Shown here one piece after another: positions 1-16,438 of a stretch of DNA of 27,264 nucleotides. The stretch is from a virus. Lineage: Duplodnaviria > Heunggongvirae > Uroviricota > Caudoviricetes. A program made the translations under genes and the position numbers. The notes under the pieces are model-generated. The model was not told the origin of the DNA. It worked only from the letters and a program-made list of their open reading frames with translations, and searched no databases. The stretch covers positions 1 through 27,264 of IMG/VR virus record IMGVR_UViG_2690316318_000023; one strand, written 5' to 3'. The number at the start of each line of letters is the position of its first letter. The first letter of the stretch is position 1.

Positions 1-282
1 CTACCTTTGCCTCTTGCCGCCATTTAACCGGAAGGCGTTACCGTTCGGTTGCGCTATCCCCATGCGGTGTTGCGTTTCGGTAACAGCTTTATGCAGGTCG
101 CCAAATTCCTCAACCTTCACGGGCGGGCGCTTCACGTTCTCCAGACACGTTTCACGGCGGCGCTTTATCCATTCCCGATCATCGTCCTCGGTGCATAACA
201 GCATGACTTCCATCCATCGTGCGGCAGCTCTCCGGTATAGCCCTTTTGACTCCAGCTCTTCAGCTTTCCTGTCCCTTATCAT
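1..282 (-). CDS. PerC-family-like small transcriptional activator (93 aa)
   Basis: Complete minus-strand ORF (ATG at 282, TAG at 3-1) with GAGAGG Shine-Dalgarno 5 nt upstream. Sequence (MIRDRKAEELESKGLYRRAA...) recalls PerC-type activators of enterobacterial islands; this is from memory and unverified. Confidence 0.5.
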   Translation of the reverse strand: MIRDRKAEELESKGLYRRAAARWMEVMLLCTEDDDREWIKRRRETCLENVKRPPVKVEEFGDLHKAVTETQHRMGIAQPNGNAFRLNGGKRQR

Positions 283-311
283 TTCTGCCTCTCAGATTAT
301 ATAGATAAGCA

Positions 312-357
312 AAAAGGTGTTGGTTCAGTTGGTTCAGTTGGTTCAATTTGTAAAGAG
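312..357. repeat. Left copy of a 46-bp perfect inverted repeat; contains tandem GGTTCAGTT/TTGGTTCA iterons (crr-like)
   Basis: Read directly: aaaaggtgttggttcagttggttcagttggttcaatttgtaaagag is the exact reverse complement of 7776-7821. Further GAACCAAC copies lie at about 391-420. Confidence 0.85.
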
Positions 358-769
358 CGTTGTTTTTATTGTGTTTTTTCTAAAATATTGAACCAACATC
401 AACTCATTTTGAACCAACAAAAAGTGTCCGTGAACTAACACTCTGTCAAATAGTCACTACATATATTAACGGTGAAGACTAAATCCGCCAGCAAATAGCT
501 TATATAGCACCGCTTTATGCCGCAGTTATGCTGGAACAGTAATCATTTCACAGAACCGCCTAACTACTATATGGCACCTGCTAAAAAGCACATCAGCCTA
601 GTCAGTTGATCGGTGCATGGATATCCTAACAATTCAACTATATAACGTGATCTCCCATGTCGATCTACTGTCATGCAATGATTAACAAACACATAGACAC
701 ATCTGCTTGGCGCATTGATTAATCACTGATCATCCATCAGGATATGCGAACCACCGTCACCAGGTTAGG

Positions 770-1855
770 ATGATTCTCAAAAGCCACCTGTATTCAATGC
801 CTTTGATGGGTTTCATCCATAGTTATTTTCTCGTGACTGACATGGAGATTTTGATTTCAAGGTGTGCAAAAACTATCGCAGAGTACAATGGAGCTCAAAT
901 GACTGTGGCACCAAAAGATCAAAGTTTGAAATCTGTAAGGGTGGGCTTTTACACAAGCTCTGAGAATATTCGCACTAGTAACAAGGGGTTAACCGCAGAG
1001 GCCTTTAAAAATCTGTATGATCGGTGTTCTAAAGACTTCAAGATGACCCACTATGCAGACTTTGGTGAAAGAGAACTTAAAATTCATTTTCTAGACATCT
1101 CACCCGAGGATGGCTCCTACTTCGGATTCATGTCTCGAAGAAGAAAAAGCGCAACACTGGCATATATTACAGATAAAGAGTGGGTGGAAGAGAAAATCCC
1201 TCTAGCCGGGGCAAAGACTCTTTCAGAACGTACATACTTTATTTATTATCCTCAGACAGACATTCTAGTATTGTCTTTAAATCATTTAGGTCCACGCCAT
1301 AGTGACTTAGCCTTCCTTCTTTTCAACTCCAGTGATCGCGGAGTCCCTGTTTCTTTTGAAGCCATTTGGAAAGAAGAAAGCATCAAAGAACTACTCGAAA
1401 CTGGATCCAATCTAAGAAGCTGCGAGATTTCTGTGGCCATCCCAAGAAACTTCAATGCCGCACAGTATCAACTCGATGGAATGTTCGCGAATCAGATGAT
1501 TGAGATGATCAGAGGCACCAGTTCAAGCCACCTGACTATTTCGTTACGCGGACATTCTCCATTAAAAAGAAAAGCAAAGGGATGGCTTGAGGATGACGTT
1601 AAAAAAAGCCTTAAGGAGATGCTAGAAAAGTTCCCTGGTGGTGATGGTCGTTTAACTTTTGAGAAAGCAAATGTTGTTGCTCAGGGCGATAAAAAGAAGA
1701 AAAGTCTTGTAGACGAAGTTCTTACGGTAAAGAAGATGGTGCCTATCCAAGCAGATGGGTATCCGACCGATACTGACGTTAAAAATGCTATGCTACAAGC
1801 AAAGAATGACAACCTTAGGTATCTAACCCAGTACTATTTGGTTAGTCAAACGTAA
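770..1855 (+). CDS. Hypothetical protein, large subunit of cargo module A (361 aa as drawn; true start may be ATG 899)
   Basis: Long ORF in visibly AT-rich DNA. The best Shine-Dalgarno (GGAG, 5-nt spacer) precedes the in-frame ATG at 899, so the N-terminus is uncertain. No catalytic motif recognisable by eye. The next gene follows 12 nt downstream. Confidence 0.6.
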   Translation: MILKSHLYSMPLMGFIHSYFLVTDMEILISRCAKTIAEYNGAQMTVAPKDQSLKSVRVGFYTSSENIRTSNKGLTAEAFKNLYDRCSKDFKMTHYADFGERELKIHFLDISPEDGSYFGFMSRRRKSATLAYITDKEWVEEKIPLAGAKTLSERTYFIYYPQTDILVLSLNHLGPRHSDLAFLLFNSSDRGVPVSFEAIWKEESIKELLETGSNLRSCEISVAIPRNFNAAQYQLDGMFANQMIEMIRGTSSSHLTISLRGHSPLKRKAKGWLEDDVKKSLKEMLEKFPGGDGRLTFEKANVVAQGDKKKKSLVDEVLTVKKMVPIQADGYPTDTDVKNAMLQAKNDNLRYLTQYYLVSQT

Positions 1856-1867
1856 CAGGAATACATT

Positions 1868-2305
1868 ATGAGTTCTCGGAAATTGTTTGCTGCCAAGTCA
1901 TTGTTTGCTCTAGCTATGGCTATTGCTGGTGCCCATTTTTTACACGACCTAGATCACAATGCTGTCATTTCGGCTGCTGGTGCTCTTTCAACTATTTCTG
2001 GAGTTCTCTTTGGTTTTGTTTTGGCATCAGTCACCATGCTAAGTAGCTTTGATAGTTCAAAGGGAATTGTAGGCGCTCTAAAAAGTAACGGAGTACTAAA
2101 AGGCATTATTGAGGGGCTTTTTGATACAGGAACTACGCTGATCACAGCCTGCCTATTAGCAATGATCTCGATGTTTGCCCCTGTTGTCAGCAATCTGCCT
2201 CTGGATTATTATGCCCTGCTACTCGCAGGGGCATATTTGATTATATCAATGATAACTTTTTTCTTTAACTGGAAATCTTTATCTAAAATAATAAGTTACA
2301 TATGA
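1868..2305 (+). CDS. Small four-helix integral membrane protein (145 aa), second gene of cargo module A
   Basis: ATG preceded by AGGA. Four hydrophobic helices are visible (LFALAMAIAGAHFL, ISGVLFGFVLASVTML, TLITACLLAMISMFAPVV, YYALLLAGAYLIISMITFFF). Same strand and AT-rich composition as 770-1855. Confidence 0.7.
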   Translation: MSSRKLFAAKSLFALAMAIAGAHFLHDLDHNAVISAAGALSTISGVLFGFVLASVTMLSSFDSSKGIVGALKSNGVLKGIIEGLFDTGTTLITACLLAMISMFAPVVSNLPLDYYALLLAGAYLIISMITFFFNWKSLSKIISYI

Positions 2306-3067
2306 TAAATATTTCAAAATGAGTCCCCCTGCTACGGATAGTCCTTGGCTTAAAAAATACCGTCACCGCTGAATACCCACACAGTGCCCCCACCCATTTA
2401 GTTGGCATAATGTATTCAACTGATTGAGGAATGGCTCCTCTTTTACTACCAAACGGCCATCGCTGGCGCATTCATCCGCTGGTAGTGGAACTTTTTAGCC
2501 ATCAGCGCCTCCCTAAATCAATTCCTTACATCGCTCAAATTCAACAACCATTGTTGTAATCTTGCTGCTATCAAGTAACGCCTTTGTATTACGCCGACTT
2601 TATCTTGCCAGCAACATACGCCATCCGATAATTTCGATGTTACGCGCGCATACTTGTCGCAAAATATCAGACAAAAGCCAGATTCAGAACGTCGTGATAA
2701 CCACCAGCACAACAGAGAGGTCATGTAACGCGATTTATCACATCAGATACATGTGATTGGTGTACCAGCATAAAACATCGTCATAGCGCGTCCTGTGCGC
2801 ATATACGCCGATAATCAACACATCACCACCACTCTGTCTCGTGTAGAGAACAGTTTCATGGTATCCCCCGCCATCGTGTGCGTACTGGTCGGACGCAGTT
2901 GCAAAAAATTTTGCAACTGATACCCCTCGCGCGCGTACTGGTCACGAAATTGGTGTTTTGCTGTGGCAGTGATATCAGAAAAATCTTCCTGTTTCACATA
3001 AAGCGGATATGCGCGTACTGTAACGGCCCCATCAACGGGGATCGGATTTGAAATCCCGACCCAAGCT

Positions 3068-3487
3068 ATGTACCAAATGCCATGTCTTGGATATATGATG
3101 ATTGCCATTCTAAACAAAGCTAAAGGGAGGGTTGGTGTGAATGCTCAGGCTGTCATCATGGTTTTCCTTGGTCTGATTGTCGCAAAACTATATCCAGACT
3201 GGTGGAAAGGGGCATTAGCAACTGTCGCCATCTATTTGCTTTTATCCGTCGTTAAGCGATCGTTCGTTAAGACCGTAAATCAAGCAAAACGTTTCTCATT
3301 TAAGAATTTAATAAACTATATTACTGGGCTTATTTTTTGCCTTTCAATTTTGATCGCCTCAGCTTTTTTGCCCGTATCAATAGCTAATTTTTTTGGCGCA
3401 CCATATGAGGTAGGTTATCTATTCTCTGTTTTTTGCCTTGTTCTTTCCCTTCTTTACCTATGGATGAGAGCAAAGAACAAAAATTAG
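3068..3487 (+). CDS. Small multi-pass membrane protein (139 aa as drawn; probable start GTG 3137, about 116 aa)
   Basis: GGGAGGG Shine-Dalgarno sits 6 nt before the in-frame GTG at 3137. Four hydrophobic segments. Convergent with the 701-aa gene. Confidence 0.55.
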   Translation: MYQMPCLGYMMIAILNKAKGRVGVNAQAVIMVFLGLIVAKLYPDWWKGALATVAIYLLLSVVKRSFVKTVNQAKRFSFKNLINYITGLIFCLSILIASAFLPVSIANFFGAPYEVGYLFSVFCLVLSLLYLWMRAKNKN

Positions 3488-3500
3488 CCATCCATGGCTA
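3485..3500. terminator. Short hairpin (TAGCCA-TCCA-TGGCTA) between convergent genes; T-run follows on the minus strand
   Basis: Palindrome read directly. Flanked by an A-run on plus (ATTTTTGTTC on the minus strand), consistent with termination of the minus-strand three-gene operon. The stem is short, so confidence is low. Confidence 0.3.
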
Positions 3501-3505
3501 ACCAG

Positions 3506-5611
3506 TTATTGAGCTTCTTTTTGTGATGCCTGTGCGACTCTGGTGAGCGATTGTGTGACCGTACTGATCGCTCTGTCATATGCTGTGCTACCTTTTGGCG
3601 TATTTGCCAGACGTAACAAGGCATTTCGTATAACAGGGCTTTCGTATGCCTTCGCTGCTCCGCCTACGGCACCAGCAGCAGGAACAACAAACGCAGCCGT
3701 TTTTAGCATCCCCGCTAATACTGCTGCGTTTATGATGCCACCACCAACTAACAATCCATAAAGCTGCTGACCATTTAAGTTTTGAACGTTCGCTTTTGCC
3801 GCGTGTCTTGTATCGTTGAGGTATTTAATAACGCCGTCCAGTTCCTTTCCATGTACGCCTTTAAAGAAAGTTGCTGATTGCTTCCTGTTCCGGTGTAACG
3901 CATTAATAAACTTCTCAACACTGATATTTCCAGACGGATCAGTCGCCTTATCTACAGCATTCTGAACTATGGCTGCTCGTGCGTTTTGCCTACCATTGTC
4001 ATCCAGAAGCCTGTAAAGCTGAGAACGTTCTGATGGGCTTTGGCTAAAAACGAGTTTTGTTACATCCTCAGGCGTGGCCTTGCCGCTGGCTATTGCCTTT
4101 TGAACGCGCGTTCTTCCCATCATGTCATTGAATTTAGACCATGAGCGATCAACCCTTGCCATATTAATGGCTTCGTCTGCTCCAAGATTTTTGGCTACGG
4201 CTTTTTTCATATCCGCCGTATATGCCTTGTAGATAATATCGCTGGCTTTCTGGAGCGTATCTTTATCAACAGTGTCAGATGACGCCATAAATCGCTTTCG
4301 AAGATCGGTTCTGTTTTCCCTCGCCAGACGCAGGTCATTTGGTCCGCTGGTGATATCGTCTTTAAATTGCTGCAAGACTTTTACCGCGGCTCTATCCTGA
4401 GATTTGCCCGGGCGGCTTAACACGGCAATCTGATTGTCGATAGCTTTTACCGTGTTTGAGAGATCGACAGGGGTATCCCCCATAGCGTCAATTATGCGGT
4501 TATATCGCTTTCCTGCTGCCTCAATGAATTTTTGTTGCCCTTTAGTCGCAGATTCATAAAGCTGTTTATCAGAAATGCCACCCAGACCATCGCTAAATGT
4601 TCTGACTAAATTTTCTCGTGCTTGTTGTTGATTCAGCCGATTCTTACCGGTTCCAAAAAAAGGAACTCTTTCGCCTAATGTCTGAGCCTGACTCTGCATA
4701 AAGGTTTTATCTTTCAGCATGTCACTGGTCATTAACGGCAGATTTCTTTCCGATGCAAAGTCGACAGCAGCCTTTGCTTCAGGCGACATATCACCACGAA
4801 CAGCCCTCGAAACCGCACTCGCTGTATTTTCCAGCCCCTTACCAATACCACCAATGCCAGCAGAAATTACCGTTTGTAACGGATCAATATCTTCTCCACC
4901 AGCAAGGCTGGTGGCTCCCTGTAGTGCTAAATCTGTAGCTGCTGATTTTCCTATGGCACCAAGCACCGTTCCAGCCCTGCCCGCTGGTGTAAACGCCAAC
5001 GCATTAGCAAGAAACGAGGTCAGGTCTTGCGGTGATAAACCCGGCTTGTTCAGGGCATAATCACCTGATGGCAGAGAAACGATAGTATTCCCCTTCTCAT
5101 CCTGCCTTAATGTCGCCCCCATTCCCTGAAGAATCTTTTCCTGAGACGCGTCAGAGCCGAAAAGTTGAGACCATCCAGCCTTTAGGGCATCCATGCTTAG
5201 TGAGTTCAATTCTGGGGCAGAGGCGACATTTTGCAGTCTCTCCATCTCTGGAGTCATTCGGCTTTCGCCTGTTATAGCATCGCGCATCGCAGCCCCAAGA
5301 CTGGCTCCCTGTTCTGCTGAACGCTCAAGCCCCTCTCTTTGCTGAGTAGCTAACTTTGCATACCCTGACGCAAGAGAATTATCAGATGATGTATGTTGAA
5401 TATTTTGAGTTGCTGATTGGGATCGGTCTATTTCATTCGTTGATGGTAGTGGATAGGCAGCATAAAAAGCCTGCTTAGCCTGCTCTACACTTTCTCCGGC
5501 TTGCGGGGCCACGACTTCATTGAAGTATTGCTCCTGAGCCTGCGCTTTTTGTTCTGGTGCTAACGCCTGATACTGTGGAGAGGCGATAACATCTTTCCAT
5601 GCTTTAGCCAT
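3506..5611 (-). CDS. Hypothetical protein (701 aa), distal gene of the three-gene cargo operon; Ala/Gln/Ser-rich with a C-terminal hydrophobic Gly/Ala-rich segment
   Basis: ATG at 5611-5609 overlaps the upstream stop (TAATG) and is preceded by GGGGTGA. No Walker A or nuclease motif seen by eye. C-terminal LLVGGGIINAAVLAGMLKTAAFVVPAAGAVGGAA looks membrane-associating. Confidence 0.8.
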   Translation of the reverse strand: MAKAWKDVIASPQYQALAPEQKAQAQEQYFNEVVAPQAGESVEQAKQAFYAAYPLPSTNEIDRSQSATQNIQHTSSDNSLASGYAKLATQQREGLERSAEQGASLGAAMRDAITGESRMTPEMERLQNVASAPELNSLSMDALKAGWSQLFGSDASQEKILQGMGATLRQDEKGNTIVSLPSGDYALNKPGLSPQDLTSFLANALAFTPAGRAGTVLGAIGKSAATDLALQGATSLAGGEDIDPLQTVISAGIGGIGKGLENTASAVSRAVRGDMSPEAKAAVDFASERNLPLMTSDMLKDKTFMQSQAQTLGERVPFFGTGKNRLNQQQARENLVRTFSDGLGGISDKQLYESATKGQQKFIEAAGKRYNRIIDAMGDTPVDLSNTVKAIDNQIAVLSRPGKSQDRAAVKVLQQFKDDITSGPNDLRLARENRTDLRKRFMASSDTVDKDTLQKASDIIYKAYTADMKKAVAKNLGADEAINMARVDRSWSKFNDMMGRTRVQKAIASGKATPEDVTKLVFSQSPSERSQLYRLLDDNGRQNARAAIVQNAVDKATDPSGNISVEKFINALHRNRKQSATFFKGVHGKELDGVIKYLNDTRHAAKANVQNLNGQQLYGLLVGGGIINAAVLAGMLKTAAFVVPAAGAVGGAAKAYESPVIRNALLRLANTPKGSTAYDRAISTVTQSLTRVAQASQKEAQ

Positions 5612-7077
5612 TAATCACCCCATAGTGAAGAAAAGTTACTGCTGGCTGCTGGCTGTGATACCTGCTCAGATTGCGGCAATGTCTGCGACGAAGAAGCAGT
5701 TCCTCTGTCAACTGCTGAAATAACCCGCAAAGCATCATAAGTTCGACCAGAAGCAGCTTTCAGCGAATTGAACTGGTTTTCCATCTTCCGGCGCTTGGTA
5801 TCAATGGTTTTTGTGGAATCACCAGGCTGAGGGAAATACATTTGATAATATTTGGACATTTCAGCTGGTAGGATAGATGCCCCTGTTTCCTGACGGAGTA
5901 TTGCCATTATTGCGTCATTAGCATTAACAACGTATTGCTGCTCTGCTGGGCTGAGCGTTAAGTTAGCCAGCGTCCCATTACCCAAAGCATTATTAATGAT
6001 CGCCACTCGCTGTGGGCTAAGCTGGTCTTTCAGTGTATCTATTGAATCAAGAGCATCCCTAACCCTGTATGCAAATCCAGCAGCTTTTTTAGCCCCTTCT
6101 GGCGACTTTTCCATGATCTTTTGGGCTGTTGGCAAAGCTATTGGACGAAACCCATCTCCAGATATTGGCTGGTTTAGTTTTCCCTGCTCTTCACTTCCGT
6201 CTGTGTAGTATTTTGTGACAGTGCCATCATCGTTTTCTCTAACACTCATTAATTTTTTGGCGTTTGTATTAATTCCAGCCGCTGCCGCAAATGCCGCCGC
6301 CCCCTCTGGATCCGCCTTTAACATTTGCGCGTACTGATTGTAATTCTGCATTGCTGCTGTTGGTGCATATGCTGACGTTAACGCATTTGCTCGGCTAATA
6401 TCCTGCCCTCTCGCCTGAAGTGCTTCGCCAGCCTGATTGCTGCGGATTGTCTCTGCCAACTTGCCACGCTCAATATCCCGACCTTCCATTTGATCTTTGA
6501 TATCGAAATACTTCTCATGACCGAGAGAAAACAGCGCCAGATTACCTGCGAAATGCTGGAAGCCCTGCGGGTCATTAACCTGCATTTCAGCAATAGTTTC
6601 TGGAGGGATACCTAAACGACGCATCTCCTGCTCATTATCCATCATGAACCTGCCAAATGCGCCCTGACCAAGCGATGAGGCTACCTGTGCTTTGAGCGCC
6701 AGATTGCCATAATCATCCCTTTGAGCATCATCGACATAACTCATCCCTTTACGGACTTCCTCAAACTCTTCTGGGAATGCTGTAATAAGATTACGCATCT
6801 GCTCCCTGTCACCGGACGCATAAGCATCTGCATAACCTTTCTGGAATGCCGCTTTACGCTCCTGCTGTTGCTGCTGCTTATAAATATCAGCAACGCCAGC
6901 CAGACCACGAAGACCTGTCAGAGCAACGTTATTTGCACCTGAGCGAGCCAGTTCATTGTTTTCGCGGATCAGACCAAGCGTTGCGTTAATGTCGCTTGCC
7001 TTTGGCGCATTCTCGTTTTGCGCACCAATGCCAGCCAGAAAACCACCAGAATTAATACCCTGTTGCCACGTAGCCAT
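5611..7077 (-). CDS. Hypothetical protein (about 488 aa from ATG 7077; ORF open to GTG 7089), middle gene of the three-gene cargo operon
   Basis: Long ORF, translationally coupled to the 701-aa gene. Gln/Ala-rich (QQQQQERKAAFQ), no recognisable enzymatic motif. Confidence 0.8.
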   Translation of the reverse strand: MATWQQGINSGGFLAGIGAQNENAPKASDINATLGLIRENNELARSGANNVALTGLRGLAGVADIYKQQQQQERKAAFQKGYADAYASGDREQMRNLITAFPEEFEEVRKGMSYVDDAQRDDYGNLALKAQVASSLGQGAFGRFMMDNEQEMRRLGIPPETIAEMQVNDPQGFQHFAGNLALFSLGHEKYFDIKDQMEGRDIERGKLAETIRSNQAGEALQARGQDISRANALTSAYAPTAAMQNYNQYAQMLKADPEGAAAFAAAAGINTNAKKLMSVRENDDGTVTKYYTDGSEEQGKLNQPISGDGFRPIALPTAQKIMEKSPEGAKKAAGFAYRVRDALDSIDTLKDQLSPQRVAIINNALGNGTLANLTLSPAEQQYVVNANDAIMAILRQETGASILPAEMSKYYQMYFPQPGDSTKTIDTKRRKMENQFNSLKAASGRTYDALRVISAVDRGTASSSQTLPQSEQVSQPAASSNFSSLWGD

Positions 7078-7081
7078 TGAT

Positions 7082-7255
7082 TTACCCACGTCCAGTTAAA
7101 GTGTAAGCCAGCGCCTTATCCATTAATCCCCGAGCAATTTCATGGATCGTTGGCGCAACTCCTACCTCTGATTTTTTACGCTGCTCCTCCTGAATTTTCT
7201 TTATCGCTTCCATTTGCTTCTCACTTATCAATACTGGCTTTACTGAAATAGCCAT
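7082..7255 (-). CDS. Small hypothetical protein (57 aa), first gene of the three-gene cargo operon; possible small DNA-binding or regulatory protein
   Basis: ATG at 7255 preceded by AAGGGGG (4-5 nt spacer); its stop lies 2 nt before the next gene's ATG. Translation: MAISVKPVLISEKQMEAIKKIQEEQRKKSEVGVAPTIHEIARGLMDKALAYTLTGRG. Confidence 0.5.
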   Translation of the reverse strand: MAISVKPVLISEKQMEAIKKIQEEQRKKSEVGVAPTIHEIARGLMDKALAYTLTGRG

Positions 7256-7288
7256 AACGCCCCCTTAGAACTGTATAAAACAACAGTC

Positions 7289-7294
7289 ATTATA
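7289..7294 (-). promoter_or_regulatory. Candidate -10 hexamer (TATAAT on the minus strand) for the three-gene cargo operon
   Basis: Perfect TATAAT about 35 nt upstream of the 57-aa ORF start. No good -35 at 17-bp spacing, so it may be activator-dependent. Confidence 0.3.
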
Positions 7295-7350
7295 GTTTCA
7301 TAAAACGCAACATTCATCATTGTGATTGCAAAATATGAAACAAATAGCAC

Positions 7351-7383
7351 AAAAAAATGCCACCGCTCAGTAGCTGGTGGCAT
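7351..7383 (-). terminator. Rho-independent terminator (minus strand) downstream of the primase/iteron region, insulating the cargo operon
   Basis: Hairpin ATGCCACC(GCTcagtAGC, T bulge)GGTGGCAT with 8+3 bp stem; on the minus strand it is followed by a 7-nt U-run (plus-strand A-run 7351-7357). Confidence 0.55.
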
Positions 7384-7577
7384 CGTTCTGTGTGTCAGGT
7401 TTTGACAGGTTTTTTATGGACTCTAAAAACTATATTTATGGTGTCGCATTACTCTTCACGGCAGGCGCTTTTCAGTTCTGCCCTTGCTTCTGGCTCCATT
7501 GGTAATTTGATTCGCGATCAGCTATGCGGATGGTTTGCTGAACAGGCATAACAACTTCTCAGGGGCTGTTTTCTGAA

Positions 7578-7653
7578 CTACGAAAATTTCGTAGTGCTCA
7601 CTTTCAAAAACGTCACGCCCTTGTACACAGGATTTTACGAAAGTCTCGTAAAA
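7578..7653. promoter_or_regulatory. Two related palindromes (CTACGAAA-a-TTTCGTAG at 7578-7594; TTTTACGA-agtc-TCGTAAAA at 7634-7653), operator-like
   Basis: Both read directly; they share a TACGA/TCGTA inverted core. Located between the ori-like iterons and the terminator. Confidence 0.3.
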
Positions 7654-7689
7654 CACTCTCTGATGCCAGCCAGGTGTTGTGCGCATCAA

Positions 7690-7821
7690 TTCAGTCACAT
7701 TGTGTTGGTTCAAAATACCGTGTTGTTGGTTCGGTGTTGGTTCAATAAAAAGAATAAAATCCTTACAAAACAATACTCTTTACAAATTGAACCAACTGAA
7801 CCAACTGAACCAACACCTTTT
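7690..7821. repeat. Iteron array immediately downstream of the primase gene (ori-like); includes the right copy of the 46-bp perfect inverted repeat (7776-7821)
   Basis: Multiple TTGGTTCA/GAACCAAC copies. 7776-7821 (ctctttacaaattgaaccaactgaaccaactgaaccaacacctttt) is the exact reverse complement of 312-357. Confidence 0.8.
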
Positions 7822-7839
7822 CTACGCACATGAAGAAGC

Positions 7840-10596
7840 TCATTCTTCGGATGAGTTATAATCTCCTGGCTGGTAATTGAGTACATAAACGTTTATTTGT
7901 CGTCCCTGAATACGTGGTGATTTTCTTTGGTATCCACGACCGCTGTTTGGTGGGGTTAGCATCCCGGCTTTTTTCAACACTTCAGCAAACTGTTTTGCGT
8001 TGAAACCACATGCGATCTCCTTTTCAAATGTGGCCGGGAATGTGTAGAAAATCATTGGGCTTTCGTCATGTTCTCCACGCTGACGGTATCCGGCTAAATC
8101 TTTGATGGGCAAATCTGCCGGGCTGTATGGAAATGGTGCAAAACGGCTAAGCCCATAGGCATTAAGAAATGCCTCCGTTTGTTCAATAATCTGCTGATGC
8201 TCTTTGTTACCTGTGCCGAACTCGCGCAACCATGCGTTATAGCTGTGCTGTATCGCATCACGGCATGTCTGAGCATCCCAGCCTGTTACAACCTCGCCTA
8301 ACAGCAATGCGGCCTCCAGAATGGCAAATCGCGCGGCTACACGGTGAACCTGCTCACCATAATCGGATGGGATCAGGCTTCTCCATCTGCTTTCGCAGTC
8401 ACGAACAGTTTTAATAGCCTGTTGCTGGTGGTCTGCCAGCCATTTAATCCACTCACGCCCGGCTGCGCCGTGGTGATGCTGGTAAGCGTCTTTCAGTGCG
8501 TCTGCGTGCTGTTTTCCGTTCTGGTAATCGTGAAAGCGTACTGCTTTACTCAACGGAATATTCAGCAGTCGCACCAGTTGCCCGGCTTTGGTTTTTCGCC
8601 CGGAAGTAGCGATAAATGTTTCTAAATCCATTTCTCCGGTGCTGATTGCCACTGTACGCCAGCGTTTTAGATCCCGGTTTCCACCATCTTTAGCGCCTTG
8701 CAGTTTCCCTACACCGTTAAATAACGCATAGGCAGACTGTGAAACACTGACAGGATCAGCGCCCTGACCAACTTCATCAAGCGGCATTAATCCGTCATTG
8801 TGGGCGGCGGCTTCATTTGCCAGCCCCAGCGCGGTTCCGTACCACGTCAGCCGCAGTAAATCAGGGTTGCCGTATAAGCTGCTCGCCACGTTTGCCGTGG
8901 TGGTCTTACCTGCGCTCGACTGCTCATAGAAATGAATACCGAACCCGTCAGCACCCACCAGCCCAATCAATGGCGCTGCCAGTGCTGCGCCGATCCCGGT
9001 CATCATTGAATAGTTACCAAAGGCCAGACGCGCCACGTTATCACGCCAGCTTTTCGCGCTCCCTGAGACGGTATATCCGGCTGCGGCTGAGCTTCTCCCG
9101 CTGAACAGCACAGGATTTTCAGGTGTTCCGATGATTTCCCCATCAGACATGATGTACGCTCCGCATTGCCAGCCAGTGGCATGAGCAACACGCCACAATT
9201 CACGAGAGCCACTGCGTTGTAGCCAGTCTGCCAGTATTGCTCTGAGGCTGCTTTTGGTCGTGACATTTACCCCACCAGCTTTAAGTGTGCGCCATCCTTC
9301 ACGTTCACCAATATCAGCCAGTGGAATGGCAGCGGTTGTCGGCGTTTCAGAACCAAACGACAGCCAGCGAAGAATGAGATACTGGTCTTTATCGTCTCTG
9401 CCAGTACCGATAACGCTTAAAGGAGAACATAACCAGCTTTCGTTATTGATGATTTCTCCACTCTGGCTGTCAGCTCTCGGAGATACCCAATAAATACCAT
9501 CCTCGCGGCTTTCTATTCTTGGTTTCAGTGGGTCGGTATCCATAACCTTAAAATCGCTTCCCTCAATGGTCTGTGGCTCCTGTTTCACGCCATTACCCTG
9601 TGGTTGGTACATTGACTTATTGAACGCTTCTGTGGCGCATTTAATGCCGTGTTTTTGGTGGTAATCATTCCAGTCTGCTTTGTGATCTGTCGGGGGTAAT
9701 GCCACCCATCCAGAAACAGATAAAGCTGCTTTTTCTGCTGCTATTCTCCCCGTGTTTTGTCTTCCTTCGCTGTGGTCGTTATCCGCAGCAATGATGATTT
9801 GTGCTGAAGGAAATTTATCCCGCAGTACCTGGGCGACATATAACAGGTTCCCGGCATCAATCGCCGCCACTGTCAGCGCTTCTGAACGAATTAAATGGGC
9901 AGATAATGCCGTTGCCAGCCCTTCTGCGATTAAGATGCTCTGTGTTGTTTCTGGTGCGTTTATGGCGTGATATGCCCCTCGCTTTGCTGAACCTGTCAGG
10001 AGTCTTTTTTCACCATGTGAGGTAATAGTCTGTGCTGCTGTGACTGCGCCGGATTTATCCACCAGCGCCAGCAACAGAGATCCATCGGGCAACACGGGGA
10101 ATGTAAAATCACCTACCCCTTTCGCAACCAGATAATCAGATTTGCCGTTTACAGCCTTTCTGCGCATGTCATCAAACTGACGGGAAAACGTATCCCGTCT
10201 TTGTTGTTCGTCCTTCTCTGCCCTTTTCAGGCGCTCCTGTTCGCGTCGCTGGCGCTCGGTTTCCAGTTGTTCCCGTTTCTGGCTGGTGGCTTCTGGTGTT
10301 TCCGTTGTCCGGTAATCAATACCCAGAACATCAGCGGCAAGAAGCGCCGCCTCTGTTGTGTCGCAGTTATTTACGCGTTTAATTAAATCCAGCCCATCAC
10401 CAGCGCCGCACTGATTACAGATGAAGCTACCGCGCCCGTTGTCATCGAACCGGAATCGATCTTTGCCCCCACATGCAGGGCAGGGAGCATGACGGCGCGG
10501 AGAGTCAGGGACATTTATGTTCAGGCAGCCCAGCACATGAGGCCAGTTGTTTTCAGACGCACTGATAACCTGACGGATAAGATCAATGTTTCGCAT
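7840..10596 (-). CDS. P4 alpha-like DNA primase/helicase (918 aa): N-terminal zinc-ribbon, TOPRIM, C-terminal P-loop NTPase
   Basis: CPACGG...CNQCG zinc-binding motif near the N-terminus; TOPRIM-like IIIAADNDHSEG; P-loop-like SSAGKTT. ATG preceded by GGGGG Shine-Dalgarno. Confidence 0.9.
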   Translation of the reverse strand: MRNIDLIRQVISASENNWPHVLGCLNINVPDSPRRHAPCPACGGKDRFRFDDNGRGSFICNQCGAGDGLDLIKRVNNCDTTEAALLAADVLGIDYRTTETPEATSQKREQLETERQRREQERLKRAEKDEQQRRDTFSRQFDDMRRKAVNGKSDYLVAKGVGDFTFPVLPDGSLLLALVDKSGAVTAAQTITSHGEKRLLTGSAKRGAYHAINAPETTQSILIAEGLATALSAHLIRSEALTVAAIDAGNLLYVAQVLRDKFPSAQIIIAADNDHSEGRQNTGRIAAEKAALSVSGWVALPPTDHKADWNDYHQKHGIKCATEAFNKSMYQPQGNGVKQEPQTIEGSDFKVMDTDPLKPRIESREDGIYWVSPRADSQSGEIINNESWLCSPLSVIGTGRDDKDQYLILRWLSFGSETPTTAAIPLADIGEREGWRTLKAGGVNVTTKSSLRAILADWLQRSGSRELWRVAHATGWQCGAYIMSDGEIIGTPENPVLFSGRSSAAAGYTVSGSAKSWRDNVARLAFGNYSMMTGIGAALAAPLIGLVGADGFGIHFYEQSSAGKTTTANVASSLYGNPDLLRLTWYGTALGLANEAAAHNDGLMPLDEVGQGADPVSVSQSAYALFNGVGKLQGAKDGGNRDLKRWRTVAISTGEMDLETFIATSGRKTKAGQLVRLLNIPLSKAVRFHDYQNGKQHADALKDAYQHHHGAAGREWIKWLADHQQQAIKTVRDCESRWRSLIPSDYGEQVHRVAARFAILEAALLLGEVVTGWDAQTCRDAIQHSYNAWLREFGTGNKEHQQIIEQTEAFLNAYGLSRFAPFPYSPADLPIKDLAGYRQRGEHDESPMIFYTFPATFEKEIACGFNAKQFAEVLKKAGMLTPPNSGRGYQRKSPRIQGRQINVYVLNYQPGDYNSSEE

Positions 10597-10608: not shown

Positions 10609-11211
10609 TTAGTGCGTCACTGGTGCTTCTGGGATGCCGTTTTCGTTTAGTTCGGCAATAAAGCTGTTGTGAAGATCGGCAAGCACTTCTCGCCCAAACG
10701 AAGTGAGTGTTCCCTGTTCGACATCGAACATGTTGCTGTAAAAAATGATGGCATTCTTTGTTCCGACATCAACACCATATTTCTCGATCATTGCGCCCTC
10801 AATGTTGTTTGCCATAGCGAGGCGCTCTGCTACTGGATACAGCGGCATGGCGACGATGCCATTGGAATAAACAGAAACCACGGAATGATTGCCACTGTCA
10901 TCAATAATGCTGACGGTGCCGTTTTCCTTTCTCATTTCATTGATGAATGCTGTTGCTATCAGCCAGCGCCACATAATCACGTGATGCTGTGATGTGTAAT
11001 CGAAATATCCCTGGTTGCCGCCACTGGCAATAGCGAGATGTATAAACATGCCTTCATCTGGTTTATCGTCATAATCCCCGGCATCCAGACGATTTACGGC
11101 ATCAATATATGAGACGGCCTCAACGCGTTCTGTCATGCCATCGTTGCTGCGGTACATGATGTTTACGCCGTCAGGCGTTGCTTCTGCATGGAAGGTTAAG
11201 AAATTATTCAT
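10609..11211 (-). CDS. Hypothetical protein (about 200 aa from ATG 11211), immediately upstream of the primase
   Basis: ORF extends to 11316 in the track, but the ATG at 11211 overlaps the upstream stop (ATGAATAA) and is the likely start. No recognisable motif. Confidence 0.6.
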   Translation of the reverse strand: MNNFLTFHAEATPDGVNIMYRSNDGMTERVEAVSYIDAVNRLDAGDYDDKPDEGMFIHLAIASGGNQGYFDYTSQHHVIMWRWLIATAFINEMRKENGTVSIIDDSGNHSVVSVYSNGIVAMPLYPVAERLAMANNIEGAMIEKYGVDVGTKNAIIFYSNMFDVEQGTLTSFGREVLADLHNSFIAELNENGIPEAPVTH

Positions 11212-11425
11212 GTTTCGCCTCGCCTGAATGATTCTGTAACTCATATTTGCCCAACAATTCGTCCGCTTCCTGAATAGCTTCTGGTACGCCATTGAGCAGT
11301 GACATAACCGCGCCAATCATTAACTTGTCTCTGTTGCTGGGGCTGGCCCCTTCAAGCCAGAACCCTAAAACAGTCTGAACCTGTTCGATGCGACATTGCG
11401 CTTCAATGAGCTGGATGTTGGTCAT
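11204..11425 (-). CDS. Small hypothetical protein (73 aa)
   Basis: ATG preceded by GGAGAG; overlaps neighbours in operon fashion. Confidence 0.55.
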   Translation of the reverse strand: MTNIQLIEAQCRIEQVQTVLGFWLEGASPSNRDKLMIGAVMSLLNGVPEAIQEADELLGKYELQNHSGEAKHE

Positions 11426-11685
11426 TTCGCACTCTCCACATCGATTAAACTGATATCTATCAGGGAGGTAACTTTTTGTAGCCAGCTATTGATTACTGTC
11501 GCCTGTTCCCCTCCCACCGAGGGAACAATCTCATTCATCACATGAACCAGACCTGTGCGCGCTCTGGTAAGCCGTTCAGTCGCGCAATCTGCGAGAGTGA
11601 ATGTGTCTGGATATGGCTCTTCTCTCCCCAGCAATGATTCAATTTCCAGCTCACACGGATGACGATAAATTAAGTTGATATTCAT
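11422..11685 (-). CDS. Small hypothetical protein (87 aa)
   Basis: ATG preceded by GGGGG; start overlaps the upstream stop (ATGA). Confidence 0.55.
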   Translation of the reverse strand: MNINLIYRHPCELEIESLLGREEPYPDTFTLADCATERLTRARTGLVHVMNEIVPSVGGEQATVINSWLQKVTSLIDISLIDVESAK

Positions 11686-11876
11686 TTTTCACCCCCAAGA
11701 ATTACCAGCTCTGCACGGGCATCGTTAACCAAAGATGAGCACGCTTTAATCGCATCCACGACATCAGCAGCGTCCATTTCTTCAGCCGAAAGACTGACAG
11801 CAACCAGGACAGCCGCTACTTGCTCAATTAATTGAAGTGCTGACGTAAGGCGAGGGGTATTAATTGAGTTATTCAT
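11682..11876 (-). CDS. Small hypothetical protein (64 aa from ATG 11876)
   Basis: GGGGG Shine-Dalgarno 6 nt before the ATG at 11876. The track ORF extends to 11933 but has no ribosome-binding site there. Confidence 0.45.
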   Translation of the reverse strand: MNNSINTPRLTSALQLIEQVAAVLVAVSLSAEEMDAADVVDAIKACSSLVNDARAELVILGGEK

Positions 11877-12936
11877 TGGTTGCCCCCGTTTTTCCTGGCA
11901 TTTGTCCACCTTCCAGCAGGAAATGAACGTCACGAACGGCGAGATCCAATATCGCGAGTAACGCCTTCAGCCTTTCGTCTCGTGAGGGAGAGTTGCTCAC
12001 CAGAATGTCGTTAATCACTTCTGTCAGTGTGATGATCTGGCTTGTGCGTTCGAGGGGATCCATATGCACATCGTAGGTTTTAATCATGTGCCACCTCCAT
12101 GCGGATACGACCAGCAAAAAAGCAGACGTGATCGCGCACCAGAGAACGGCGAGCATCGCGTTCAGACTCGGCAGCAATATGATGAATTTTGGCGGTAATT
12201 GTCGGGCAATCGCGGCGAACTGCGGCGATAATCCAGATAAATTGCGGTTTTTGGGTAGGGGTAGTAGCCAGCATGTGGCAGCCTCCTTCAGATAGCAGGT
12301 TACGCTACCACCGGAAACGCCAATTTCGCTGGTGGTAGCCCAGACAGGGTTGGCGTAACCGGCTCTGAAGGATACCGGCGCTTCCGAAGAAGCCCCCGCC
12401 TGAGCCACCATTGATTGACAAAGGCGCTGGATTATACACCAACGCCCAAAAAATGGGTGAGTCAGACCTACGACATAAAAAAAGACGCTCGGCGCGTCAT
12501 ATGTCGCCTTCAGAATTTTCAGGACGCCAATCCCGGCACCCGTTTTATGAGGTGCCTTATAACCATAAACCGTGTTGCCGCATAACGGCAAGCTCTTTTT
12601 TATGGACTCCGAAAACTCAGTATTGGAAGCACCAGATGCACAATACATCGCGCTCATTTCGTTAACGTCGCGCGTATGGACGAAGGTTTTTGTGGAGTCA
12701 CTACGCGAGCAGAGAAAGCCATCTACGACCAGAAATTCTCTGGCGCAGCCGCTGACCTTCTCAACGCTAACACCATCGACCGTAATTTCTGACATAGTTA
12801 AGGCATCCGCTCCTACCACCAGAAAATGATAAACTTTGCTTGTATCTGCTGTATTAATGCCAGACTTTGCTGTCATATTGCTGGATTTTGGTGACATACC
12901 AGCCAGTGAAAATATCTTCTTCTGGACGGTTAGCAT
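11869..12936 (-). CDS. ORF of uncertain structure (355 codons open); N-terminal part looks like a real protein, C-terminal part overlaps alternative small genes
   Basis: ATG at 12936 has a GGAGG Shine-Dalgarno. The frame is open to 11869, but strong GGAGG-ATG sites also occur at 12274 (other frame, 64 aa) and 12087 (same frame, 72 aa), so the real gene boundaries are unclear. Confidence 0.35.
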
Positions 12937-13112
12937 TTGTTAACCTCCGCGAACTCCTTCATGAAGCGCGCCAGCGGTTGTACGCATGGCGATTGATACC
13001 CGTCGCGATAAAACGTCACTCGGTTGTGAGACACGCTTTCGACAGTAACGAGTGCTCCGTGGGCATCTTTGTAGCGTTTTTGAGGTTGTGGTGTTCCTGT
13101 TGGCTTAGACAT
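12930..13112 (-). CDS. Small hypothetical protein (about 60 aa from ATG 13112)
   Basis: GGAGG Shine-Dalgarno 6 nt upstream of ATG 13112, which overlaps the end of the upstream gene. Confidence 0.45.
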   Translation of the reverse strand: MSKPTGTPQPQKRYKDAHGALVTVESVSHNRVTFYRDGYQSPCVQPLARFMKEFAEVNKC

Positions 13113-13938
13113 TGACCGCCTCCAGACGCTTGGCGAGCCAGCGTTGCGACAGGCGGGTGAGTTCTCCTTTGCGCTGCTCATATTCCATGCCCATATCAAT
13201 TAACGTGATATTGGTGCTTTCGAGATATGAGAGGTGCTCAAGCTGTTCTGCGTTCATATGGTCGCGAGGTTCGCCAGAATAGCCATTTATCCGCGCCCAC
13301 TGCTTAGCAGTTAGCCCACCAAGAACGATACGAGAAATCATATTGCTCTCGTTTGTGTAGTGGTGTTGCTGCGTCGTTTTCCCCTGCTCGGCACGGGCCA
13401 TATTCAGCGCATCGCACATTGGCTTAAAGTTGTTTGCGGCACTGATACGGGCTTTTAGCTGGCGACGATAGCGGGCGGCGATTTCAGGCACGCTACGCTG
13501 TAATTCTTCCTCGCACTGGATGAAATAACGGCGGATAGCGCGACCCTGATCATTGCGTTCGATCATTGCCAGTTCTTTCGCCATTCCGACACTTAACAGA
13601 TAGTCTTTGCCGGGTCTGCCAGACTGCTTAATCTTGCTGTAAGCCGCGCCATTCGGGCTTTTCCCCAAATTTGGGGAAATTGTTTTATGGACTGAGTAAT
13701 CGTGCCCAATGGTGAAGTCATATTCAGAGATGCGATCAGTGATCCATGTAGAGAAGTCTTTTCCCACGCCCAACGCTTTGTGTAACGCTTTTGCGCTAAC
13801 AATATTGGTTTCACGCCCACCGATATGACCAGGAATAACCGGGACAATTGCGGCAAATTCATTACCGTTAATTGTGCTCAGAGAGGCGTTCAGATGAGGG
13901 GCGGCCTCAGAAATTAATCTGCTTTTTTCGATGTTCAT
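13105..13938 (-). CDS. Phage antirepressor-like protein (277 aa)
   Basis: GGAGA Shine-Dalgarno. The N-terminal region (DYLLSVGMAKELAMIERNDQGRAIRRYFIQCEEEL) resembles the antirepressor/Rha-type N-terminal domain of phage regulatory proteins; recalled, unverified. Confidence 0.7.
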   Translation of the reverse strand: MNIEKSRLISEAAPHLNASLSTINGNEFAAIVPVIPGHIGGRETNIVSAKALHKALGVGKDFSTWITDRISEYDFTIGHDYSVHKTISPNLGKSPNGAAYSKIKQSGRPGKDYLLSVGMAKELAMIERNDQGRAIRRYFIQCEEELQRSVPEIAARYRRQLKARISAANNFKPMCDALNMARAEQGKTTQQHHYTNESNMISRIVLGGLTAKQWARINGYSGEPRDHMNAEQLEHLSYLESTNITLIDMGMEYEQRKGELTRLSQRWLAKRLEAVNV

Positions 13939-13950
13939 TTTCAGTCTCCG

Positions 13951-14382
13951 TTAAGCGGCGTTAAACGCGTCCGGGTAGAGTTTCAGAATGTCGGCAATTT
14001 CCTGCTGAGAAAGTCCGTTGTGATCATTTATGTTCGCAAGATGGTTAATATGAGTGATCACTTTCAGAACATCACCACGGCAGGAGAAACGGTAGCGAAG
14101 GTGTGTTCCGATACCATCAGGATTCTTTTCGTCGATACGCTCCAGAGTGATTCCAAGCTGGCGTTCTAACTCTGTTGCATAGTTACGACCAGAAGACAGA
14201 CGGCAGTAGCGAAGAATGTCGTTTTCTGTCCATCCCTCTATACCAGTACGCAGCATATAGACTCGGGCACGATGCTTTTTCGGTGTGCGCTTTGGTGCTT
14301 GAAGGGATTTTGTAAGGGGCGTAATATCAGATACGCGAATATCTGAATTAGCCGCCTGTAATGGGCGGTTTTTCTTTTCCAT
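13951..14382 (-). CDS. Hypothetical protein (143 aa), basic N-terminus
   Basis: ATG overlaps the alpA stop (ATGA); no recognisable domain. Confidence 0.65.
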   Translation of the reverse strand: MEKKNRPLQAANSDIRVSDITPLTKSLQAPKRTPKKHRARVYMLRTGIEGWTENDILRYCRLSSGRNYATELERQLGITLERIDEKNPDGIGTHLRYRFSCRGDVLKVITHINHLANINDHNGLSQQEIADILKLYPDAFNAA

Positions 14383-14585
14383 CAGGCCACCTCGTCTCTA
14401 GATTCTAATATACACTTCTCAATCCATTCATCTATTTCAGACTCAACAAAAGCAATAGCCCGACTTCCAATTTTTACCTGTTTAGGGAACCTCCCCTGAC
14501 TAATAAGACGATAAATCCATGCTTTGCTATAACCAGTTCGCCTTTGAACTTCAGAGAGACGAATTAATGAATTGTAATTAGCCAT
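14382..14585 (-). CDS. alpA: AlpA-family phage regulatory protein / excisionase-like HTH (67 aa)
   Basis: Size, position next to int, and the motif ...RLSEVQRRTGYSKAWIYRLISQGRFPKQVKIGSRAIAFVESEIDEWI are typical of AlpA-type regulators. Confidence 0.85.
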   Translation of the reverse strand: MANYNSLIRLSEVQRRTGYSKAWIYRLISQGRFPKQVKIGSRAIAFVESEIDEWIEKCILESRDEVA

Positions 14586-15012
14586 TTATTAATATCCTGT
14601 ACTAATGACGCAATAACCCCCTCCTGCAACGAATGGCGAGAGTTTTATTTGCGTCAAATGTCGAATACGCCAAAGACCACAATATGAAAAACATATTGCG
14701 GTCTTTTATAAAAGATAGTCAGATTGTTTTGGTTTGTTTGCTCCACAAGGGTAGAGCTACCCTGCATTTCGGCAGGATCACGCTATTAGGCGTGACATCC
14801 AGTAGTTTTAAAGAACAATTGCGCTTTGTCAGCGCCAAAGCCTGTTAAAGAACATTCCGCTTTTCAGCAGCGTAGAAGGCTCAATACACCTTCGTTTATA
14901 AAAGAGCGATTGCCCTTCTCCAGGGCTAACTGTTAAATAGCAATCCTCTGTGAGTTTTTATCAATCTACTCCCCTATACTTTAGTAAACCTCTGTATACT
15001 TGTCCAGTTGTT

Positions 15013-16227: not shown

Positions 16228-16291
16228 TTGGGGGTACCTCCACTAAACCGAACAGCAAATACCCCCATAAGTACCCCCATCTGACCGTAGA

Positions 16292-16375
16292 TTTTGAGGG
16301 ACTTTAGTAGACGTCAAAAGACGAACGGGGCTTTAATACGCGGATTATAAGGGGTTTTGAAAGACTTTAGTAGAC
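16292..16375. repeat. Pair of 21-bp direct repeats (TTTTGAnnGACTTTAGTAGAC) between int and the att core; candidate integrase arm-type sites
   Basis: Read directly at 16292-16312 and 16355-16375 (2 mismatches). Confidence 0.4.
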
Positions 16376-16392
16376 TTGGGGAGATGTTTGAA

Positions 16393-16438
16393 TGGTGCCG
16401 ATAATAGGAGTCGAACCTACGACCTTCGCATTACGAAT
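16393..16438 (-). pseudogene. tRNA-Thr 3' fragment (46 nt: anticodon loop through CCA end), att-core repeat beside the integrase; not an intact tRNA
   Basis: The minus strand reads ...TTCGTAATGCGAAGGTCGTAGGTTCGACTCCTATTATCGGCACCA (T-loop GGTTCGACTCC, acceptor stem, CCA), matching my recollection of E. coli thrW. The upstream sequence cannot form the 5' acceptor/D arm. Confidence 0.6.

Follow-up and report, generated by a model that had tools for sequence, protein, structure and literature searches.

The 27,264-nucleotide (nt) stretch analysed here, referred to as the window, is the viral record IMGVR_UViG_2690316318_000023. Next to a satellite primase gene it carries a compact three-gene operon on the minus strand, which encodes proteins of 57, 488, and 701 amino acids (aa). 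Comparison with protein families and related genomes identifies this operon as a variant allele of the ejection-protein module found in a published satellite family. Its parts are known: the two large proteins are homologues of gp20 and gp16 of phage P22, and both already carry corresponding names in RefSeq ("phage DNA ejection protein" for gp20, and "P22-gp16 family phage DNA ejection protein" or "injection protein" for gp16). A preliminary description of the same DNA had called the large proteins unrecognisable and had proposed an undescribed system, offering anti-phage defence, helper interference, or virion-associated and injected proteins as possible roles. The full-length matches of both proteins to the P22 ejection families in Pfam, PHROG, and BLASTP searches agree with the last of these options. 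We consider it reasonably probable that the satellite gp20 and gp16 are packaged into the capsids of a helper phage and build the channel through which the packaged DNA enters the cell. All coordinates are given in the numbering of the window.

The 488-aa protein is recognised by the Pfam family PF16928 (Inj_translocase, "DNA/protein translocase of phage P22 injectosome") with an E-value of 1.3e-83 and 280.4 bits against a cut-off of 29.7, and the match covers residues 16-232 of the 492-aa reading of the gene and profile positions 1-217 of 218. In addition, phrog_917 matches the 488-aa protein over its full length, and BLASTP gives 56% identity to P22 gp20 over the first 239 aa (E=2e-85). The similarity is unevenly distributed: the first 50 aa are 96-98% identical to the gp20 proteins of P22 and of the P22-like phage Kapi1, and the remainder is 8-58% identical. 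Moreover, the gene is recombinant among the satellites themselves, its N-terminal 200 residues corresponding to one satellite allele and its C-terminal 290 to another. On the strength of these alignments, the 488-aa protein is a P22 gp20 homologue and a mosaic allele, predicted by homology to act as a periplasmic conduit protein, and the conserved first 50 aa may represent an assembly or interaction signal. The longest reading of the middle open reading frame (ORF) has 492 aa and starts at an upstream GTG at 7089; the ATG start of the 488-aa version agrees with P22 gp20 (MATWQQGINSGG) and with the RefSeq gene models.

The 701-aa protein is matched by phrog_770 ("DNA transfer protein") over residues 19-700 (E=2.4e-163), and aligns with P22 gp16 from residue 210 to its C-terminus (30% identity over 482 aa, E=4e-53, BLASTP). 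Closer relatives are the gp16 of a P22-like prophage of Yersinia (74% identity) and that of an Edwardsiella satellite (76%). PF26808 is absent from the Pfam matches at E<=1, a result for which the model may be missing from the Pfam copy used, and the 74-76% identical homologues carry a precomputed PF26808 match. The Gly/Ala-rich hydrophobic segment near the C-terminus, which had been noticed in the preliminary description, is present at about residues 617-649. The 701-aa protein can thus be assigned by homology to the P22 gp16 family, with a predicted DNA-transfer role at the inner membrane. A sequence search of the PDB returned no match for either gp20 or gp16.

In other genomes the gp16-type gene is annotated as "hypothetical protein" or "injection protein", and at three loci (L001:20397-22212, L003:14397-16212, and L004:12395-14210) the Prokaryotic Genome Annotation Pipeline (PGAP) calls it a pseudogene of about 605 codons "missing C-terminus". 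These pseudogene flags are artefacts of annotation: each of the five genomes compared has an intact 701-codon ORF.

Outside satellites, the pair is found among the structural genes of a genuine P22-like prophage. This prophage, in Yersinia enterocolitica, carries portal, scaffold, and coat genes, then head-completion genes, gp7, gp20, gp16, a membrane protein gene, and tailspike. Homology to internal virion proteins together with such structural neighbours speaks against the undescribed system that had been proposed, and the homologous module of the satellite EcCIMP1 is already in print as "DNA transfer" genes (PMC11773190). A role in anti-phage defence gains no support from PADLOC, which gave no match for the 701-, 492-, 57-, and 139-aa proteins or for six neighbouring proteins.

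The integrative element that carries the operon has an integrase-AlpA-AntA-Ash-primase backbone in the conserved order and contains no capsid, tail, or lysis genes, so that its description as a satellite stands. Its primase is 99.5% identical at the aa level to that of EcCIMP1, and the DNA identity to EcCIMP1 amounts to 96-98% over 7107-10596 and 10611-16438 (96.4% over 10611-16438) and to about 95% at the end carrying the PerC gene (window 1-441). Judged by these identities, the element is an EcCIMP1-like phage-inducible chromosomal island (PICI) and probably a satellite of P22-like podophages. EcCIMP1 is the PICI of Escherichia coli MP1 (Pick, Stadel and Raivio, ISME J 2025, PMC11773190). 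It excises only upon induction of the P22-like phage vB_EcoP_Kapi1 (Kapi1), which transduces EcCIMP1 at low frequency (PMC11773190).

Relative to EcCIMP1, the block that has been swapped comprises window positions 3063-7106, that is, gp20, gp16, and a convergent gene for a protein with four transmembrane (TM) segments. The last ~8 codons of the 57-aa gene, referred to as the head ORF, fall inside this cassette, and the 3' end of the head ORF differs between the window and EcCIMP1. The same slot of EcCIMP1 starts with a 53-aa head ORF, which is followed by a gp14-like DUF2824 protein, a gp7-like protein, gp20 (439 aa), gp16 (906 aa, with a transglycosylase domain), and finally a lipoprotein. 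Further cassette combinations occur in other E. coli satellites whose heads are near-identical, and a BLASTP matrix resolves at least five gp20 types and at least four gp16 types behind one conserved head ORF and promoter. In all satellites examined, gp20 and gp16 are direct neighbours. The authors of the EcCIMP1 study guessed that the "DNA transfer" and DUF2824 genes downstream of its primase have a role in packaging (PMC11773190). Pick et al. suggested for EcCIMP1_017-019 that such proteins redirect the packaging of satellite DNA or support it, an idea that we regard as highly improbable for the cassette described here. The genes do lie on the downstream side of the primase, a place at which packaging genes are found in other E. 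coli PICIs (PMC11773190), but they show no similarity to terminase, Rpp/Ppi, or capsid-size factors, and the known role of their homologues is in DNA exit and entry.

The biology of the P22 ejection proteins (E-proteins) provides the frame for the reading that we prefer. In P22, gp7, gp20, and gp16 sit in the capsid, leave it before the DNA, and build a conduit across the envelope (Leavitt et al. 2024, PMC10883804). gp16 and gp20 need matched pairing while gp7 is interchangeable, and complete foreign E-protein sets give functional P22 hybrids in which incorporation of the foreign proteins was confirmed where it was measurable (PMC10883804). P22 escapes the exclusion protein SieA through changes towards the C-termini of its gp16 and gp20, and those regions set SieA sensitivity (PMC10883804). 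For window 3063-7383, as the probable DNA-delivery cassette of the satellite, we infer from the genes and this background packaging in virions, a conduit function, escape from exclusion, and roles for the small ORF and the membrane protein. Upon induction of a P22-like helper the satellite would excise and replicate, as has been shown for EcCIMP1 with Kapi1 (PMC11773190). Satellite gp20 and gp16, directed by their phage-like N-termini, would then enter helper procapsids, with gp7 and gp14 coming from the helper. Upon the next infection they would be ejected and form the trans-envelope channel for the satellite DNA. Because gp16 and gp20 must match and gp7 is exchangeable, a two-gene cassette without gp7 and gp14 is explained. 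The divergent, self-matched pair would make a conduit unlike that of the helper, and its likeliest benefit would be entry into cells with SieA-like inner-membrane exclusion. The convergent membrane protein travelling with gp16 would probably serve as an exclusion factor of the carrier cell.

The module proteins of EcCIMP1 diverge from those of its validated helper Kapi1 to very different degrees, with identities of 83% for gp14, 57% for gp7, 26% for gp20, and 24% for gp16, a pattern that fits the entry-channel reading. Since interference with helpers is common among satellites (for example, Staphylococcus aureus pathogenicity islands, P4, and PICI-like elements, PLEs), it might be supposed that the satellite proteins compete for incorporation, spoil helper virions, and so reduce helper spread, as other satellites do by interfering with capsids or packaging. 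Satellite alleles with 24-26% identity to those of the helper would suit such a role, and mismatched gp16 and gp20 do produce non-infectious particles that still hold the foreign protein (PMC10883804). However, Kapi1 titres from induced lysogens are unaltered by EcCIMP1 (PMC11773190), the satellite rides the same particles and would be hurt by its own poison, and a poison has no need of both members of a matched pair, which are always kept. Hence, we think this explanation quite unlikely.

The distribution and maintenance of the cassette bear on whether it has a present function at all. The head region (window 7060-7450) occurs in 499 of 5,426 complete E. coli genomes (~9%). Beyond E. coli, a Serratia locus consists of integrase, AlpA, AntA, Ash, DUF927 primase, head ORF, gp20, and gp16, and the recovered part of an Edwardsiella locus of DUF927 primase, SSB, gp20, gp16, and a membrane protein, with no head-ORF homologue evident upstream of the Edwardsiella gp20. 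The E. coli genome NZ_CP062855.1 carries at least two satellites with the window-type cassette of gp20, gp16, and membrane protein, and the inspected copy (L022) has a DUF5906 primase, not DUF927; the cassette therefore moves between satellite backbones. Pairwise ratios of nonsynonymous to synonymous substitution rates (dN/dS) are 0.04-0.31 for gp16 and 0.06-0.29 for gp20, values which are both based on few differences and which show signs of purifying selection on the cassette. A fragment of a P22-like prophage that was captured by recombination and has no present function in the satellite would account for the fact that the unit of gp16 and membrane protein is common to P22-like prophages, for a frameshifted gp20 in one relative, and for the pseudogene flags that PGAP places on some gp16 copies. 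We nevertheless hold such debris to be very unlikely, as the flags are artefactual with the 701-aa ORF intact in 5/5 genomes, dN/dS lies well below 1, the cassette keeps a fixed place after a promoter and head ORF that are conserved across genera, several independent allele replacements have occurred in the same slot, and the head is found in 9% of complete E. coli genomes.

The third gene of the cassette encodes a small polytopic membrane protein of 129 aa, belongs to the swapped block, and co-varies with the gp16 allele among satellites. A homologue with 73% identity lies between gp16 and the Head_binding tailspike gene in the Yersinia P22-like prophage, which is the position of sieA, and a homologue with 83% identity adjoins gp16 in the Edwardsiella satellite. 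The protein was considered as a SieA and rejected, as BLASTP against P22 SieA (type A) gave E=0.95 and the FxRYPxEAxxFNK motif is absent; this comparison by sequence was made with type A, types B and C not being compared directly. No tblastn match was obtained for the protein in 50,697 phage records. It is a candidate exclusion factor for the carrier cell.

Every ejection cassette examined ends in a small envelope protein, although the kinds differ. EcCIMP1 has a lipoprotein with an LAGC lipobox after the cassette (L017:11749-12447), Serratia has a 91-aa single-TM protein (L011:14378-14653), and in Kapi1 two small secreted proteins follow gp16 (L018:14629-15171). EcCIMP1 gives lysogens added superinfection immunity against Kapi1 (PMC11773190), and the small envelope proteins that follow the cassettes are candidates for this unexplained immunity.

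The added immunity also raises the question of whether the cassette as a whole protects the resident cell by blocking the DNA entry of superinfecting P22-like phages, either through the membrane protein alone as an analogue of SieA or through resident gp16 and gp20 acting as dominant-negative mismatched partners. Such protection would agree with the immunity of EcCIMP1 lysogens against Kapi1 (PMC11773190) and with the failure of mismatched gp16/gp20 pairs to function (PMC10883804). It would further agree with an envelope protein adjoining gp16 in every cassette (four-TM here, lipoprotein in EcCIMP1, single-TM in Serratia), with the membrane-protein homologue in the sieA slot of Yersinia, and with the perfect -10 element of the promoter. 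On the other hand, gp20 and gp16 lack signal peptides, and gp20 works in the periplasm once the virion has released it. SieA alone suffices in P22, which makes a pair of large virion proteins needless for exclusion, and PADLOC finds no match. Virion assembly accounts better for a gp20 that is strictly paired with gp16 and has a phage-identical N-terminus. Protection of the resident cell as the purpose of the cassette is therefore, in our opinion, unlikely, and its membrane-protein part is compatible with packaging and entry-channel formation rather than in competition with it.

Several points weigh against the packaging and entry-channel reading. That satellite E-proteins are present in virions, or needed for transfer, is something we infer from the genes. 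Kapi1 transduces EcCIMP1 very inefficiently, at about 5e3 particles per ml (PMC11773190). Helper and satellite E-proteins presumably mix in capsids, which would make an advantage hard to keep private. The gp20 gene is frameshifted in one relative, and in the one two-satellite genome checked both satellites have the same cassette type, which does not fit a simple view of allele diversity as the advantage in itself. The 129-aa protein is without detectable sequence similarity to SieA. Finally, the promoter of the module has no motif in common with the Kapi1 promoters, leaving the timing with the helper late genes unexplained.

A broader interpretation extends to the satellites of other genera. 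Homologous satellites with primases 57-82% identical have the same head ORF and promoter and different cargo. In a metagenome-assembled genome of Erwinia (L009:9980-14225) the cargo comprises a tail protein of 607 aa (tape-measure-like or lytic), a spike that bears a gpV apex motif, a baseplate hub resembling gp41, and a Dit-like protein; in Klebsiella quasipneumoniae (L015:10001-12602) it is a 671-aa SLT protein and a Dit-like protein; in Raoultella terrigena (L013/L014:10001-12648) it consists of 605-aa and 168-aa proteins of unknown function; and in Serratia silvae (L010:9986-11446) a decayed tape-measure fragment is found. It seems that the slot is occupied by proteins of envelope penetration or of the tail tip that fit the type of helper. 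We tentatively suggest, as a possible though not the expected outcome, that the arrangement of primase, small head ORF, and variable cargo is a dedicated, exchangeable DNA-delivery slot in Enterobacterales satellites, which holds helper-matched envelope-penetration proteins, often with a travelling exclusion protein. A conduit of its own would let the satellite escape SieA-type exclusion in helper lysogens, and the linked membrane protein would exclude helper-type conduits. Such a slot would contain P22-type gp20 and gp16 with or without gp14 and gp7 in E. coli, Serratia, and Edwardsiella; in Erwinia, Klebsiella, and Raoultella its content would be tape-measure-like or lytic proteins alongside spike, hub, and Dit-like proteins.

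The head ORF is a conserved element of this arrangement. Its 57-aa product has no family match and no phage match in Pfam, PHROG, and phage searches, and its profile gave only noise against the PDB. A search of the genome contigs with the 57-aa protein recovered only three loci, and the wider context was obtained from a search for homologous proteins and the contigs encoding them. The homologues are confined to Enterobacterales (45 clusters), and the second helix of the family is nearly invariant (GVAPTIHEIARGLMDKAL). A ribbon-helix-helix (RHH) autoregulator is a plausible candidate for its function.

The anatomy of the operon (Table 1) largely agrees with the preliminary description: the three minus-strand ORFs, the TATAAT hexamer, the AAGGGGG ribosome-binding site, and the TAATG overlap are all confirmed in the sequence, and a terminator scan finds a hairpin with a T-run at both the upstream and the downstream end. 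The spacing of the first two genes needs correction, since a gap of 2 nt had been given and the stop codon of the 57-aa gene (7084-7082) is followed after 4 nt by the ATG at 7077. The TAATG at 5613-5609 makes the gp20 stop overlap the gp16 start. The upstream terminator insulates the module from the primase operon.

The -10 hexamer is invariant in 10/10 aligned loci from five genera and is therefore more than a chance occurrence. No acceptable -35 hexamer was found, and a consensus promoter scan, which requires one, did not call the site at 7294-7289. As the TATAAT is without a recognisable -35, the promoter of the module is probably activator-dependent. Upstream, between flanks that cannot be aligned, TTTCAT and GCAAT blocks are kept in E. 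coli, Serratia, Erwinia, Raoultella, and Klebsiella, and in the window these blocks make up an imperfect dyad that covers the -35 position; this region is probably a binding site for a regulator. The ACTGT of an inverted repeat just after the -10 is likewise invariant across genera, and the repeat could possibly be an operator or a hairpin in the 5' untranslated region. In a comparison of the module promoter with the promoters of the helper Kapi1, no motif matched better than chance, an extended -10 motif being found in the window only. Inspection of the sequence by eye revealed no activator site of the P2/P4 type (TGT-N12-ACA).

Table 1. Features of the ejection-protein operon and of the satellite that carries it.
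Feature	Position	Strand	Basis and remarks
Polytopic membrane protein, 129 aa (139 aa from upstream ATG 3068)	3098-3487	+	About four hydrophobic segments
Terminator hairpin and T-run, operon end	3482-3503	-	Terminator scan; overlaps end of convergent ORF
gp16-type ejection protein, 701 aa	5611-3506	-	ORF and family matches
gp20-type ejection protein, 488 aa from ATG	7077-5611	-	ORF and family matches
57-aa head gene	7255-7082	-	Own ORF; ribosome-binding site AAGGGGG 7266-7260
Inverted repeat ACTGT-N8-ACAGT just after -10	7270-7287	-	Sequence
-10 hexamer TATAAT	7294-7289	-	Sequence; no recognisable -35
Imperfect 16-nt dyad TTTCATATTTTGCAAT / GTTGCGTTTTATGAAA	7296-7340	-	Pattern matches on opposite strands, 7325-7340 and 7296-7311
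Intrinsic terminator	7351-7383	-	Terminator scan; 8-bp GC-rich stem 7374-7359, T7 run, tail ATTTTTTTGT
Zn-ribbon/Toprim/DUF927 primase	7840-10596	-	Pfam; bounds slot upstream of module
Satellite backbone: phrog_1515 protein, small ORFs, Ash, AntA, 143-aa ORF, AlpA, integrase, att end	10609-16438	-	Pfam
Ash	11869-12936	-	Pfam
AntA	13105-13938	-	Pfam
143-aa ORF	13951-14382	-	No Pfam, PHROG, or PADLOC match; relative's counterpart annotated "PM1773 family"
AlpA	14382-14585	-	Pfam
Tyrosine integrase	15013-16227	-	Pfam

Some further observations concern the satellite and its surroundings. The satellite AntA was considered as a relative of P22 Ant, and a comparison of the two found no relationship. 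Between PerC and the cassette, window positions 770-2305 hold two co-directional cargo genes whose products of 361 aa and 145 aa match phrog_7651 and phrog_8552 (unknown function) and have no Pfam or PADLOC match. EcCIMP1 is without these two genes, and relatives carry Abi_2, ImmA/IrrE, or RnlAB at this place, which looks like a defence or cargo hotspot of the satellite.

The 9-mer TGAACCAAC forms two clusters at window positions 312-439 and 7696-7821, beside PerC and just downstream of the primase gene, respectively, each with five exact copies and additional near-copies. Allowing at most one mismatch, 20 matches are found in the window against 7.2 expected. Together the clusters form an inverted repeat of 55 nt (96%) on either side of the entire variable region (cargo and ejection cassette), and the iteron also occurs upstream of the module in Serratia. 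The pair of clusters resembles the ori and crr iteron pairs of P4, which are bound by the alpha primase.

At the integrase end, the similarity to EcCIMP1 stops within 16393-16438, in sequence that is the tRNA-Thr of E. coli MP1. ARAGORN detects no tRNA in the window, and the element may abut a partial tRNA copy (att site) or occupy another site; relatives are integrated beside yicC, beside a tRNA annotated as tRNA-Ser, or beside tRNA-Thr. To the right of the satellite (16827-27264) follow chromosomal genes for a GNAT acetyltransferase, an HTH-cupin regulator, a CxxCxxCC protein, and a MASE4-GGDEF cyclase. Beyond the cyclase, the minus strand carries the end of a lambdoid prophage, with a tail fibre assembly protein, a tail fibre of 955 aa, Lom, and 737 aa from the C-terminal side of J. 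This prophage is a siphovirus and not a P22-like helper.

Provided that they are packaged and used, the satellite proteins would determine which cells can be entered by the satellite, as well as by any helper DNA in such particles. The spread of satellites would in this way be linked to superinfection exclusion, which might explain the immunity provided by EcCIMP1. Should the interpretation as an exchangeable slot prove true, it would represent a new strategy of piracy, in which the satellite brings its own injection machinery. The cassette is as mosaic as the same genes in P22-like phages. A warning concerns annotation: labels vary inconsistently between "hypothetical", "injection protein", and pseudogene, and the single paper on the family took these genes as packaging candidates (PMC11773190).

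Compared with P22 itself, the window shows the same gene order, with genes 20 and 16 translationally coupled in the same way, as does Kapi1. The P22 order 14-7-20-16 is followed by the convergent sieA, and in the window an envelope gene on the opposite strand likewise follows gp16. The first 50 aa of P22 gp20 are 96% identical to the window gp20, and the alignment with P22 gp16 reaches the C-terminus and so covers the region of the SieA-escape mutations. In contrast to P22, the genes of the window lie on a satellite without portal, coat, tail, and lysis genes and without gp7 and gp14. Instead of belonging to a 20-kb late operon, the module has its own promoter, head ORF, and flanking terminators. 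The C-terminal half of gp20 and most of gp16 are at only 18-34% identity to P22, and gp16 has a 9-residue hydrophobic insertion. P22 SieA and the 129-aa protein are both small polytopic membrane proteins encoded directly downstream of and convergent with gene 16, but they share no sequence similarity and the SieA motif is absent from the 129-aa protein.

EcCIMP1 and the window share the satellite family, the head ORF, the promoter, the PerC gene at the far end, and an ejection module in the same slot. They differ in its content, with gp20 proteins that are 26% identical and gp16 proteins without a significant BLASTP match, and where EcCIMP1 has gp14, gp7, and a lipoprotein in its module, the window holds gp20, gp16, and the convergent four-TM protein only.

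Literature searches that combined ejection or injection proteins with satellites or PICIs returned no paper on satellite-encoded ejection proteins or on the supply of an entry channel. Satellites are known to steal or remodel capsids, to redirect packaging, and to borrow tails. Among those that encode some virion proteins themselves, instead of taking all of them from the helper, are the capsid-forming PICIs (cf-PICIs) and P4 (with Sid and Psu), which supply or remodel capsids. Whereas these elements act on the shell of the particle, the satellite described here would supply the internal proteins of the channel through which the DNA enters the next cell.

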